In this document: positions 39,881-58,183 of the stretch, in pieces
How the letters are laid out: every line of letters begins with the position of its first letter
Numbering within the stretch: position 1 is the stretch's first letter
Assembly: GCA_963843145.1 (NCBI GenBank)
Contig: CAWJJC010000006.1
Span: 32,001 to 96,000 of the forward strand
Direction: 5' to 3'
DNA from: an uncultured delta proteobacterium
GTDB lineage: Bacteria; Desulfobacterota; RBG-13-43-22
Length of the DNA stretch: 64,000 nt
Notes under the pieces: generated by a model
What the model saw: the letters and a program-made list of their open reading frames with translations, nothing else
Told to the model about the DNA's origin: nothing
Database searches by the model: none
Position numbers and translations under genes: made by a program

Positions 39881-39965
39881 CGCCTTGTCGGAATAATTAA
39901 ACTCGCCAACCTGGGGGCGGGTACTCCGAAGCACGAAAATAGGCTTTAAACGGGTCGAGTCAGCT

Positions 39966-40055
39966 CGTCATTCCGGACAAGCGAAGCGCGATCCGGAATC
40001 CAGACCTCGGCCAAGCCTCCAAGGACCTGGATGCCGGATCGAGTCCGGCATGACG
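39966..40055. repeat. REP-like palindromic element, intact copy
   Basis: CGTCATTCCGGAC...ATCCGGAATCCAG...CTGGATGCCGGAT...GTCCGGCATGACG; a closely similar copy is split by IS110 at 54873-54886 / 55979-56060. Confidence 0.85.
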
Positions 40056-53545: not shown

Positions 53546-54634
53546 TTAGTCGGCCTTTGGCGAAAGGGACAGGGGGATTTGAAAAAGGAGTTCGGTTCCC
53601 CGATCGGGTAGCGAGGAAAGCTCCATTCGTCCATTCACTAAACGGACACGTTCTTCCAGCCCTATCCGCTCCCGAGCTTCTTCGGGACCGTCCCCCGGTC
53701 GGTCCTCCTTTATTTGCCCGGTTTCAGAAATGAAGAGCTGGAGGGCATCCTCCTCCACGGTGAGCCTAACGGTAATTTGGGCGGCCTGGGTCTGGCGCAG
53801 GACTTCTTGGACCAGCCGGAAAGAGGCGATTTCTACTTCCGGGGCAAAACGCACCGACGGCGGTTCGGCGGAAAACGCTATAATACTTCCGGTCCGTTGG
53901 GACTCGTGGTCGATATGCCGGCGGAGGGCGGGAATCAATCCCAGCTCATCCAGGATCGGGGGGCGTAATTCCATTGAAAGCCGGTTAATCTGTCGCCAGA
54001 CCCGGTCAATCAATTTTATACTTTCATTTACCGGGATCGACCGGTCGACCGGGTTGGGAAGGGCCAAGGCGGCTTGGAGATTGACTTGAGCGGTGAAGAG
54101 GACTGGGCCGATTTCAACCTGCAATTCCCGGACGATCTGTTGCCTTTCCGCTTCCTGGGCTTCGATTAAGTGCCGTGATAGCAGGCGGAGCCGGTCCCGG
54201 CTGGTTCGCAGGTCTTCGGATGGCCTCTCCGCTGCCCGGGATTGGTTCTGGAATCCCTCTTCAGCCCTCCGGCCTTCAGGTATTTCCGAGATGAGGTGAA
54301 CGGCTCCGATCAACCGACCGGATTCGTCAAAGAAGGGATCGGCGCTGAGGTTTAAGGTGCGGCCATTTAAAGACAATACCAGGGTTTCTTTTCGCAGGCT
54401 TTGTCGCATGCGGCTGACCGGGCAACCGGGGATGGGTTCCAGGTTACCGTGAACCAGTTGGCAGCAGGAAAATCCCAATATTTGGTCCGCCGGTTTTTTT
54501 AGAAGGTCTACCATGGCCTGGTTATAGTTCAAAATCCGGCCTTCCAGATCCAATAGGCAAACGGCTTCAGGGAGGGAATCAAAAATACTTTGCCAGGGTT
54601 GGGAAATTGCCGTATTGTTCCGATCCATGATCAT
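53546..54634 (-). CDS. PAS-domain NarX/UhpB-like sensor with degenerate kinase motifs
   Basis: PAS with CCQLVHG...CP; H-box reads IVRELQVE (His lost; family consensus ARELHDE); LRPPILDELGL kept; N and G boxes degenerate. Own start likely ATG 54634. Confidence 0.7.
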   Translation of the reverse strand: MIMDRNNTAISQPWQSIFDSLPEAVCLLDLEGRILNYNQAMVDLLKKPADQILGFSCCQLVHGNLEPIPGCPVSRMRQSLRKETLVLSLNGRTLNLSADPFFDESGRLIGAVHLISEIPEGRRAEEGFQNQSRAAERPSEDLRTSRDRLRLLSRHLIEAQEAERQQIVRELQVEIGPVLFTAQVNLQAALALPNPVDRSIPVNESIKLIDRVWRQINRLSMELRPPILDELGLIPALRRHIDHESQRTGSIIAFSAEPPSVRFAPEVEIASFRLVQEVLRQTQAAQITVRLTVEEDALQLFISETGQIKEDRPGDGPEEARERIGLEERVRLVNGRMELSSLPDRGTELLFQIPLSLSPKAD

Positions 54635-54884
54635 TGCCTGGGTCTTCCTTGGGGGGAATAGGCCTGTAAAAGCCAACAAAGGCCTGGTTCGTACCTTCTT
54701 GAAAAGAGTACAGGTATTCTGCCATATCCTCGGGGGAGAGATCAACTCATTTTCCCGGTTTTCCCGCCTAATTCTTAAAGGGCGTTGAATGAATCTCGTG
54801 GGTATGGTATTAAACTCCCAGGCCCGGGAGGCCACCCCGAAGCAGGAACATTTGTTTTTAAGCTTAAGCATTAGCTCGTCATTC

Positions 54885-55980
54885 CGTCTCCGGGCAATCT
54901 TGACAATGGCCTTGGTCTTCTTCATCCGCCGGCAGTACTCATTAAAGGCCAGCAACAATACCGGATCCAGCCGGGCGGCCGTCCAGGCGGCTTCGATGAG
55001 TACGTCCCGTAGTTGGGCGTTTCGCCGAAAGGTCAGGCCGCCGATATGCTCGGTTTCTCCGCTGACGTGAATGTCGGGGATGAGCCCCACGTAACTGGCC
55101 AGGTGGTCCAGGTCGCTAAAGCGGGATAGGTCACAAAGCTCGGTGAGCAGGATCATGGACGCTAGCGTACTTAATCCCGGGACGGTTTTTAAGTGCTCCA
55201 CACTCTTCCGATACACGGGCTCCCGGGAAAGCAGGATGATGCCCCGGTTTACGGAGGCGATCAGTGACTTGAGCTGCTTTAGTTCTTCTAGATAGGCCTG
55301 AAAGGCCAGATGGCCGCTGGCCCGCTCCATCTGGATCTGTTCGAGCTGGTTAAGAAACTTTTGGGACCACCGACTACGAACGACTTCTTCGGGCTGATCC
55401 AGCCCGTAGAAGAACAGAAAGGACTTGATTTGATTCTTACACCGGGTTTGCTTCCGCACCAAACTTTGCCGGATTCGGACCAGGCTGCGATCTTCCAACT
55501 GGGGTCGGGTCGGAACGTAGATCCCTTTCAGTTCCCCGCTCCGCAGATGCCGGGCCAGCTTGCGGCAGTCGATCCGATCCCGTTTGGTGGTGCGCTCTTT
55601 ATTCGTCGTCGGGACATCAGCCGGATGGACCACGATACAGTTGACCCCCTTTTCCTGAAGCTGATTGTGGGTCCAGAAGCCGCTAAAACCGGCTTCATAG
55701 GCCGAATAATAGTTCGCCCCGGGAAAATTCCGTTTCAGATAATGGGCCAATTTGTCCGCTTCGGGAGGCTGGGTAAACTTTTTATGCTCGCATTGTTCCG
55801 AAAAAATGCTCACGCTCCAGTTCTTTTTATGGACATCCAGTCCCACGTAAATCGATTGACCCGAAAAATCCAATTTGTTAACCTGTTCCATAGCAAGTCT
55901 CCTTTCGGTTGTTTTTTTGTCTGGCACCAAAAGTATAACCGAAAACTCAAGACTTGCCTTTCTATTTCAACATAAGGTCG
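54885..55980 (-). mobile_element. IS110-family element, 3'-truncated, inserted in a REP-like palindrome with CG core at both junctions
   Basis: Left flank AGCTCGTCATTC-CG and right flank CG-GACAAGCGAAGCGCG reconstitute the intact palindrome at 39962 onward. Confidence 0.85.
54887..55891 (-). CDS. IS110 family transposase (DEDD recombinase), lacking C-terminus and stop codon
   Basis: YVGLDVHK, YEAG, KRDRID, TVPGL, SYVGLIP...SG, LIEAAW; ends at KIARR at the junction. RBS AAAGGAG before ATG 55891. Confidence 0.88.
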
Positions 55981-56060
55981 GACAAGCGAAGCGCGATCCG
56001 GAATCCAGGGCTGTTGAAGCCCCCCAATGCCCTGGATGCCGGACCAAGTCCGGTATGACG
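55979..56060. repeat. Right part of the REP-like palindrome interrupted by IS110
   Basis: CGGACAAGCGAAGCGCGATCCGGAATCCAG...CTGGATGCCGGACCAAGTCCGGTATGACG. Confidence 0.85.
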
Positions 56061-56113
56061 GCCAAAATCAAAGGCCCAAAAGCTGTGTTTGAATGTTATT
56101 TTCGGATTAAACT

Positions 56114-58183
56114 ATGACCGTTCTCCATCCGGCCGCGGAGCGCTACCTGAACATCCCCGGCAGCCTGATCGCCTGGGTCCTGCTGATCGTGGCCTTAATA
56201 CTGTTCTCTTTTTCATTGTACCGGCGTCTCTGTCTGCTCCGCTCCGGGCAGCCGGACCCCCGCTGGGGCGACTGGAAGGAACGGGTCTGGGGATTGCTTG
56301 TTTTTGGAATTCTCCAAAAAAGACAGCCCCGGTATTTCTGGTCCGGGTTGATCCATTTTCTTATTTTTTGGGGGTTTGTGGTCCTCGGGCTTCGTTCGCT
56401 GGATCTGATCGTGCAAGGCTTGGGAGGCGGAACCGCCCTGCCTTTTTTGAAAGGCGGATTAGGATCCTTTTACAGCAGCCTCAAGGATCTGTTCGAACTG
56501 ACTGTCCTGGGCGCCTGTATTTGGGCCATCTTTCGGCGGGTGGTAATCAGGCCTGCCCGGTACGAGCTGGAGAAAGGCCGAGGGCCTGGCTGGGAGGGCT
56601 ACCTGGTCCTGTCCCTGATTGGTTTCCTGATGCTTACGGATATGTTTTTTGAAGGGGGCACGCTCCTTTTGTCCCCCCCCGCTCCGGGCTGGCGTCCGTC
56701 GGCCGGCCTGGCCGCCTCGGTTTTGTCCGCCCTGGATGAAACCGAGATCAAAAACGTTTCCCTTCTCGCTTACTGGGCCCATTATCTGGCCTTCTTTTGC
56801 TTTTTAAATTTTCTCCCCCTGGCCAAGCACTTCCATATTATTACGGCCCTGCCCAATATCTTTCTGCGCAAGCTCAAAAAAGGGTCCCTCAAGCCGGCCC
56901 GCTGGGGGAAGGAGAACTTGGAAGAACTGGAAAGCCTGGGCGTCGGTCGTCTCGAGGATTTTACCTGGAAGCACCTCCTGGATTTATTCACCTGCACCGA
57001 ATGCGGACGCTGCTCGGACCAATGCCCGGCCAAGGCGGTGGGGCGTCCCCTTTCGCCCAAGATGATTACCCTCAAGCTCCGGGATTACGCTTACCGTAAA
57101 GTCCCGGTGTTTTCCCTCGGCCGCTCGACATCCGCTACAGAGCCAGCGGAGGATCGGAAGGAAAAAGGAGGCCCCGAAGGCGCCCTGATCGGGGAGGTGA
57201 TCACCTTCGCTGAAATCTGGTCCTGTACCACTTGCGGGGCCTGCGAAGAAGAGTGTCCGGTCTTTATCGAATACATCGATAAAATGATCGATATGCGGCG
57301 CCACCTCATTGAAACCGCCCAAAACCCCAAGACCTTTAATTCGATTCTGACTCATGTGGAAAAGACCGGCAATCCCTTCGGCAAACCGCCTAAAAAACGG
57401 GCCGATTGGATCAAGGAGATCGCGGATGTTCCGGTCAAGGTCCTGAAAAAAGGAGATGAGACGGACGTTCTTTATTTTGTGGACAGCTATGCCTCTTACG
57501 ATCCCCGGGTGCAGGCCGTAGCCCAGGCCGTCGTCCGAGGATTGAGTCTGGCCGAAGTGAACTTTGGGATCCTGGGCGCGCGGGAGAAGGACTCGGGGCA
57601 TCAGGTCCGCCGCCTGGGTGAAGAAGGGCTTTTTCAGTTGCTCCGGGAGGAGAACCTGGAAATCCTTCAATCTTGCCGGTACAAACAAATAGTCACCACG
57701 GATCCCCATGCGTTCAATACGCTAAAAAATGATTATCCGGGGAACCTGCCGGTGGGGCATTATACCCTGATTTTTCGGGATTTGCTGGCTTCCGGCCGGT
57801 TAAAGCCGAAAAAAATAATCGACGGGCAACCGCTTTACACGTATCATGACCCCTGTTACCTGGGTCGGCACAATGAGATTTATGAGGCCCCCCGGGAAAT
57901 TCTCAACCGCCTTCCGGGGTTGAAGTGGGTGGAGATGGCGCGTTGCCGGGACCGCAGCTTTTGCTGCGGGGGCGGGGACGTCAATCTCTGGCATGAAATC
58001 GAAGGGGAAACGATGCGCCCGGCGGCCAGGCGCCTGGAGATGGCCCTGGAAGCAGGGGTCGGGGGGATTGTTACGGCCTGTCCCTTCTGTTTATTGAACC
58101 TGGAGGATGCGGTCAAGACCGCGGGCCTGGAAGATGAAATGAAGGTGGTTGACCTGATGGAATTGTTGGTGTCGACTTTATAG
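56114..58183 (+). CDS. Membrane-bound FeS oxidoreductase (FadF/HdrD-like, probable ETF:quinone oxidoreductase)
   Basis: N-terminal TM helices with His residues; CTECGRC...CP, CTTCGAC...CP; HDPCYLGR, CCGGG, ACPFC; upstream of etfBA. Confidence 0.9.
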   Translation: MTVLHPAAERYLNIPGSLIAWVLLIVALILFSFSLYRRLCLLRSGQPDPRWGDWKERVWGLLVFGILQKRQPRYFWSGLIHFLIFWGFVVLGLRSLDLIVQGLGGGTALPFLKGGLGSFYSSLKDLFELTVLGACIWAIFRRVVIRPARYELEKGRGPGWEGYLVLSLIGFLMLTDMFFEGGTLLLSPPAPGWRPSAGLAASVLSALDETEIKNVSLLAYWAHYLAFFCFLNFLPLAKHFHIITALPNIFLRKLKKGSLKPARWGKENLEELESLGVGRLEDFTWKHLLDLFTCTECGRCSDQCPAKAVGRPLSPKMITLKLRDYAYRKVPVFSLGRSTSATEPAEDRKEKGGPEGALIGEVITFAEIWSCTTCGACEEECPVFIEYIDKMIDMRRHLIETAQNPKTFNSILTHVEKTGNPFGKPPKKRADWIKEIADVPVKVLKKGDETDVLYFVDSYASYDPRVQAVAQAVVRGLSLAEVNFGILGAREKDSGHQVRRLGEEGLFQLLREENLEILQSCRYKQIVTTDPHAFNTLKNDYPGNLPVGHYTLIFRDLLASGRLKPKKIIDGQPLYTYHDPCYLGRHNEIYEAPREILNRLPGLKWVEMARCRDRSFCCGGGDVNLWHEIEGETMRPAARRLEMALEAGVGGIVTACPFCLLNLEDAVKTAGLEDEMKVVDLMELLVSTL

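Follow-up and report, generated by a model that had tools for sequence, protein, structure and literature searches.

A 3'-truncated IS1111-group element in a REP-like palindrome and the predicted bridge RNA of its complete copy in an uncultured delta proteobacterium

The window, i.e. the whole stretch of 64,000 nucleotides analysed here, contains an IS110-family transposase gene on the minus strand that interrupts a REP-like palindrome, as found from the sequence and a domain search. We consider it very probable that this segment (54887-55979) derives from a 1586-bp insertion sequence (IS) of the IS1111 group, of which it is a defective copy truncated at the 3' side, lying in a REP-like palindrome and belonging to a system guided by a bridge RNA. 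This reading draws on the observed anatomy of the element, on ends shared throughout the family, on a covarying RNA structure and on the covariation of guides with their targets.

Results

The interrupted repeat is split at 54886/55980. Its left half on the plus strand (54826-54886) consists of a conserved lead-in followed by GCTCGTCATTCC and aligns to 39915-39975 of an intact copy; the same left half also precedes the complete element of this genome (locus L002, 950-1008). The left flank ends in AGCTCGTCATTCCG at 54886, where the final G can be assigned either to the repeat or to the IS, and the right flank begins with GGACAAGCGAAGCGCGATCCGGAATCCAG at 55980, after a C at 55979. This right half, from GGACAAGCGAAGCGCGATCCGGAATCCAG to GTCCGGTATGACGG (55980-56060, plus strand), aligns to 39975-40055. 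Read on the plus strand, AGCTCGTCATTCCG is directly followed by TCTCCGGGC between 54886 and 54887, and CATAAGGTC by GGACAAGCGAAGCGCGATCCGGAATCCAG between 55979 and 55980. In the transposase sense the left junction of this copy is CTTGTCC-G-ACCTTATG, from which the A of AG is absent, and the other junction joins CCCGGAGAC to GGAATGAC. Within the 1093-bp element (minus strand), the transposase gene occupies 54887-55891, comprises codons 1-335 and has no stop, its frame continuing through the REP half into the next gene. The ATG (55891-55889) stands downstream of a ribosome-binding site and an 87-nt leader. This 5' non-coding end (55892-55978, minus strand) is conserved among relatives and contains the ribosome-binding site AAAGGAGAC as well as the arms of the left subterminal inverted repeats, at 55949-55962 and 55965-55974; these arms are also found in the full copy. 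At 55979 only the C of the core dinucleotide is left, at a position where the intact copy and the relatives have CT (AG in the transposase sense); a public contig from run X3 carries the extra T here.

The sequence-only reading had suggested searching the genome for a full-length copy, and one was found. The only further copy in the genome is 100% identical to the window copy across all 1093 bases (G000:C20:4595-5687) and then extends for 491 bp more. The complete element, with its transposase gene on the minus strand, measures 1586 bp (G000:C20:4103-5688; L002 1009-2594) and runs into the left half of a further REP copy, with GGCTCGTCATTCC adjoining TCTATGTTGAAAAGCAAGTCTT. Both copies occupy the identical position and orientation within the repeat. 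The complete copy has 87 nt of non-coding DNA upstream and 426 nt downstream of the transposase gene, an arrangement that agrees with the earlier suggestion, made from the short 5' end, of an IS1111-like layout with a guide RNA at the 3' side. Its subterminal inverted repeats, with arms of 10 nt (100%) and 14 nt (93%), lie 2 and 6 nt inside the ends and are conserved in relatives.

The 491 bp absent from the window copy comprise codons 336-356, the entire 3' non-coding region with the bridge RNA, and the right subterminal repeat arm. The window copy has thus lost 21 conserved residues from the C-terminus of the transposase, and with them the RNA gene and the right end; it is a dead remnant that is incapable of autonomous movement. 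The claim that both of its junctions are readable is not confirmed: the left junction (plus strand) is not an IS end, the ORF has no stop within the element, and the right junction is shorter by one base than in the intact copy and in 51/51 relatives.

The full copy encodes a 356-aa DEDD/serine recombinase, which continues past the window truncation as ...KIARRLLNRIRYVLKNQVDYVPGVIQ and stop. Pfam profile searches matched PF01548 at 1.6e-14 (residues 17-160, the DEDD, RuvC-like N-terminal domain) and PF02371 at 2.2e-17 (residues 233-312, the C-terminal Transposase_20 domain), and the profile NF033542 ("IS110 family RNA-guided transposase") was reached with 193 bits against a cutoff of 140; the IS110 element in a REP-like target described by the sequence-only reading is thus borne out. 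By our own count, the length is exactly 356 aa in 85 of the best 120 homologues listed. In a 14-sequence alignment (A2), invariant positions account for 11 of the 21 residues that the window copy has lost, and the motif GL-P----SG is present as GLIPDIHVSG (residues 269-278) with G269, L270, I271, P272 and G278 invariant and S277 nearly so. The structures of the ISCro4 and IS621 recombinases are distant profile matches to the protein, that of IS621 at E = 1.1e-10 and over the C-terminal half only. The best transposase among 72,556 plasmid records has at most 39% identity.

A scan of species-representative genomes yielded 79 related loci with 47-79% protein identity, mostly from metagenome-assembled genomes (MAGs) of uncultured Deltaproteobacteria and Nitrospirota, mainly of soil and sediment origin. 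Both ends were located by pattern in 52 of these loci, the other 27 having been missed by the end patterns or the ORF filter. In the transposase sense, the element starts AG-ACCTTATG... and finishes ...TTTCAACATAGA. A wider pattern count of junctions covered 51 loci, with the C20 and window copies falling outside the pattern: AG precedes the left end in 51/51, and the dinucleotide after the right end is AG in 29, GG in 20, AA in one (L026) and TG in one (L028). AG/CU also stands at the core positions of both loops of the bridge RNA described below. The core of the family is thus CT (AG in the transposase sense), and the CG core of the sequence-only reading has to be given up. CT is the published core of IS621 (PMC11208160), and for ISPpu9 a core of AG has been reported (PMC12288879).

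Two minor observations concern the ends. The right end of L026 is directly followed by 16 nt that recur in its own non-coding region, and this partial duplicate of the element in the 3' flank suggests tandem or nested copies. Joining right to left ends in a virtual circle gives, in most relatives (L004-L080), a -35 box TTGACT/TTGCTT, a 17-bp spacer and a -10 box TATGAT/TATGTT; this candidate junction promoter is a consensus match only, weak in the C20 copy, and junction promoters of this kind have been reported for other IS110/IS1111 elements.

The target has the properties of a REP, being a short imperfect palindrome that is multicopy and located between genes. The sequence-only reading had called 39966-40055 an empty target site, and we agree with slightly wider limits: the uninterrupted palindrome at 39962-40055 (plus strand) starts unbroken with AGCTCGTCATTCCGGACAAGCG..., in a longer reading AGCTCGTCATTCCGGACAAGCGAAGCGCGATCCGGAATCCAG, and the equivalent of the insertion point lies between 39974 and 39975. 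It is one of 33 empty sites in the 5.35-Mb assembly (G000), as the 15-mer GTCATTCCGGACAAG has 33 exact uninterrupted copies there; the target is a genomic repeat, as had been proposed. BLAST of the genome returned 97 matches to the 241-bp repeat unit, 35 of them spanning the insertion site, and the number of copies is 33-42 overall, depending on the count. The repeat unit is a long imperfect hairpin (-29.6 kcal/mol, z = -5.2, 0/200 shuffles as stable) with the insertion point in its 5' arm. Both occupied copies and the one at 39962 are intergenic, i.e. between ORFs. In some relatives (L079, L080, L019-L022), tandem heptamer-type repeats take the place of REP palindromes as the target, e.g. TAATAGT units in L079, and the guides of such relatives match those repeats.

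The 3' non-coding region of the C20 copy is predicted to encode a two-loop bridge/seekRNA, as both structure and target covariation suggest. The predicted RNA (C20:4334-4493, minus strand; located by RNA structure prediction and covariation) is about 150 nt long, starts about 40 nt past the stop codon and has two similar internal loops; the guide RNA that the sequence-only reading expected is hence found in the C20 copy and absent from the window copy. Each module has the order stem, 5' guide, (C)U, GCAGC, hairpin, GUCUGC, 3' guide, AG, stem. The RNAalifold consensus of 33 distinct sequences has 26 pairs, with compensatory changes in 13. Adding the base stem of the second module extends the structure to 32 pairs, 15 of which change on both sides; 93.7% of the cells are paired in it, compared with 33-43% when partners are slid, and its covariation score of 0.288 (0.123 in shuffles) was reached by none of 500 shuffles. 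An Rfam search of the full copy returned no family for the guide RNA, and its sole match, to a snoRNA at E = 0.21, was dismissed as chance. Separately, a near-perfect hairpin of about 90 nt lies between the bridge RNA and the right inverted repeat in the C20 copy (L002 1057-1148; arms of 25 nt, 96% complementary), in L004-L007 and in L016. It is restricted to relatives with a long 3' non-coding region (~370-430 nt) and absent from those with a short one (~260-270 nt).

Within the target loop, the sequence of the 5' guide is reverse-complementary to the core and the adjoining right flank. For C20 this guide is GUCAUUC-CU, complementary to the right side of the REP in the transposase sense (GGAATGAC), and comparable pairs of guide and right flank are CGUCACCCCU and AGGGGTGACG in L005, AUUUUAUGCU and AGCATAAAAT in L013, UGCGUAAUCU and AGATTACGCA in L019, and GCCCCCGCU and AGCGGGGGC in L061. 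The 3' guide corresponds in sense to the left flank followed by AG (CUAGUCC-AG against CTTGTCC in C20, 6/7 positions) and, having the orientation of the left side of the REP, it pairs with the other strand. Flanks and anchors were usable in 46 loci, and the guide-flank comparison covered 43 distinct rows in 28 guide classes. The 5' guide agrees with its own right flank at a mean of 7.8/9 positions (4.5 with other loci) and the 3' guide with its own left flank at 4.7/7 (2.2 with other loci). For each guide, the observed sums were reached 0 times in 10,000 permutations over the 28 classes, a statistic inflated by the guides and targets that related loci have in common. The evidence proper lies in the many different pairs of guide and target.

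The donor loop gives a less uniform picture. Its 3' guide tracks variants of the right end (ATAGA-AG with CATAGA, ATAAA-AG with CATAAA, ATAGG-AG with CATAGG), and the C20 guide AAUAGA-AG matches the right IS end CATAGA; L078 breaks this rule, its end probably being mis-called. The 5' guide has only partial complementarity to the left IS end (AAGG against CCTT), and no clean base-pairing rule for it was found when the guides of the relatives were compared with their left ends.

At REP sites the core itself does not match. The C20 guides specify CTAGTCC-AG-GAATGAC and the repeat offers CTTGTCC-G-GAATGAC, i.e. CC/GG at the core position, so the core is either mismatched or one base short. One RNA loop matches the REP site on both sides, and a guide-perfect target with AG between the arms (CT on the plus strand) has no match in the genome (G000). 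The junctions of the C20 copy read left arm-AG-left end and right end-GG AATGAC, and the same pattern occurs in 20/20 GG loci, all with the 5' guide GUCAUUCCU and spread over five or more lineages. Another genome, G001, contains some ten copies, and its six empty sites read GGACAAGCCGGAATGAC, without an extra base; altogether, 0/33 empty sites in G000 and 0/6 in G001 have one. All 21 mismatched-core loci (these 20 plus C20, including about ten independent insertions in one genome) have the donor AG at the left, transposase-proximal junction and target bases at the right, distal one.

Discussion

By the features compared here, the element is assigned to the IS1111 group of the IS110 family. Its subterminal inverted repeats, with arms of 10 and 14 nt, fall within the 7-17 bp that characterise the group, and these repeats together with the short 5' end and the long 3' non-coding region are shared with ISEc11, ISPa11, ISKpn4 and ISPst6, which are IS1111 elements with a 3' seekRNA. 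ISPa11 targets REPs. The layout is the one given for IS1111 elements by Siddiquee et al. 2024 (PMC11187229), and so is the order of the guides, in which the match to the top strand lies 5' of that to the bottom strand; the seekRNA elements treated there also share the GL-P----SG motif and site-specific insertion into repeated sequence. In contrast, the transposase is, at 356 aa, slightly outside the range of 330-350 aa stated for the group in that source, the guide loops are simple internal loops in a common frame GCAGC...GUCUGC, and the element occurs mainly in MAGs of uncultured Deltaproteobacteria and Nitrospirota from soil and sediment. With IS621 (Durrant et al. 2024, PMC11208160; 8WT6) it has in common a two-loop RNA and a DEDD plus serine recombinase, and in both systems, going by what is described for IS621, each loop pairs with the bottom strand to one side of the CT core and with the top strand to its other side, and both guides cover the core. 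The IS621 RNA, however, is described as lying in the 5' (left) end and its subterminal repeats as only 2-3 bp long, and the two recombinases are only distantly related. The IS110-family element ISPpu9 of Pseudomonas putida KT2440 (Pares-Guillen et al. 2025, PMC12288879) resembles ours in being inserted in REP sequences, in its crossover at AG in the transposase sense and in that only some of its genome copies carry the downstream RNA module. It is described there as a member of the IS110 group without subterminal inverted repeats, with an Ssr9 RNA that is dispensable for transposition and with modules bounded by repeated A/B boxes, whereas the window copy has no such boxes. The element is therefore a natural example of the system described in 2024, of a kind already known, with the member itself being new.

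As to mechanism, we infer that the RNA is expressed and that a circular intermediate forms. By analogy with IS621 and ISEc11, a complex of recombinase and RNA would pair the circular IS junction with a REP site, and strands would be exchanged at the 2-nt core CT (AG in the transposase sense). Two readings fit the REP core: either a target GG faces the donor AG and the 5' guide is shifted by a single nucleotide (some relatives have one more U in the RNA at the place of this shift), or the core is one base short. Under either of them, a left junction with the donor core and a right junction with the target core is the product of exchange of the CT strand. The opposite junction product was not seen among the relatives, and the window copy is the single exception, with a left junction as expected from exchange of the other strand. 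Rather doubtfully, we raise the idea that only the CT strand is exchanged and the other copied later, the window copy perhaps being the fossil of a failed or aberrant double-strand event. Resolution of the top strand only and single-strand copy-and-paste would each give the observed junction asymmetry, and single-strand excision with copy-and-paste has been proposed for IS621 (2026 preprint, 10.64898/2026.08.31.748434). The asymmetry is compatible with single-strand copy-and-paste, but mismatch repair or selection could also produce it.

The origin of the window copy is most simply described as a normal insertion followed by a later deletion: removal of TGCTC...CATAGA from such an insertion would give the second junction of the window copy. 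The missing A at the left junction is not explained by plain deletion alone and calls for a second event or another origin. A microhomology-mediated deletion was considered and set aside, as AGA is common to both deletion ends by eye but the extra C of the product is unaccounted for. Read in this way, the pair of flanking CG dinucleotides results from the 491-bp 3' deletion and one missing base, each of them combining a base of the REP with a base of the IS or its core; CG is not a core. The sequence-only reading had instead taken the window copy for a complete element with a CG crossover core and two genuine junctions. CG does stand literally on both sides, excision of the element with one CG restores exactly the repeat that is intact at 39962, and the REP bases at the core position are CG on the register of the 5' guide of the RNA. 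We nevertheless give this reading next to no chance, given an ORF without a stop and without its last 21 conserved residues, an identical copy on C20 that extends 491 bp beyond, as far as a subterminal inverted repeat and then half of a REP, relatives with AG at every one of 51 left junctions and CG at no right junction, and AG/CU in the loop guides. A different thought is that the recombinase itself made or moved the truncated copy, as a transposase-only mini-circle using an internal pseudo-end with the bridge RNA supplied in trans, or by abortive excision. The rest of the copy is pristine (1093/1093 identical), a 2-nt CG is duplicated as after a crossover, and both lesions adjoin expected CT-strand cut positions, the missing A coming right after the left target arm and the deletion ending exactly at the boundary of right end and target; moreover, ISPpu9 circles are reported to form with and without the downstream RNA module (PMC12288879). 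The internal breakpoint CCGGAGA/CT, on the other hand, matches the donor guide at 3/9 positions by eye, which is chance level and led us to reject a recombinase pseudo-site there; it has no box resembling a right end, the genome holds neither a second truncated copy nor a solo RNA module, and none of the 52 relatives' loci with located ends is of the truncated form. Given lesions at predicted cut sites in a copy otherwise identical to C20, we leave an origin linked to the recombinase a small probability.

The locus might also be an assembly chimera across the IS and REP repeats, such that the truncated copy does not exist in the cell, and in its favour are the 32 contigs and 6.9% estimated contamination of the assembly, the repeated nature of both IS and REP, and public contigs that at 54886 all run on as the full-length element. 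The truncated junction between 54886 and 54887 was seen in this assembly alone. Four public runs (X1-X4) contain the IS at 95-100% identity (three at least 99%) and only in full length, together with intact repeats; their depth is zero over 54600-54869 and 56112-56200, and lacking the flanks of the window copy they are uninformative for this locus, neither for nor against. What speaks against a chimera is that the left REP half is joined to an internal IS position with only about 4-5 common bases, which makes a repeat-mediated mis-join unlikely, and that unique flanks on both sides are contiguous with the REP halves. We regard a chimera as highly improbable, and the truncated IS1111-group element remains our preferred reading.

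The analysis provides an annotated natural IS1111-type system from uncultured soil bacteria, with ends, core, target and two guide loops defined, and it corrects the idea of a CG core. The 33 related RNAs with their many different natural targets form a comparative set for the rules of guide recognition. The recurrent use of REPs with a mismatched or shortened core and a constant outcome could inform how stringently core identity is required and which strand decides the product, and this bears on the off-target behaviour of bridge editors.

Some further features of the surroundings are recorded here. The REP that holds the intact IS on C20 is flanked by two genes (L002 222-815 and 2776-3777): one for a PstS-like phosphate-binding protein (PBP_like_2 at 1e-39), the other an ORF without a Pfam match that resembles a permease of the PstS-like gene's operon. 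The sole other IS110-family gene of the genome is a second, very distant transposase gene (G000:C27:3827-4819, 21% identity). In the window (53546-55930, minus strand), the stop-less transposase frame runs through the REP half and about 80 intergenic codons into a gene for a PAS-domain sensor kinase (PAS_4 at 2.6e-9), giving an ORF of 794 aa. This in-frame fusion is probably due to chance, and since the IS lies directly upstream of the kinase gene on the same strand, read-through transcription into the kinase gene is possible.
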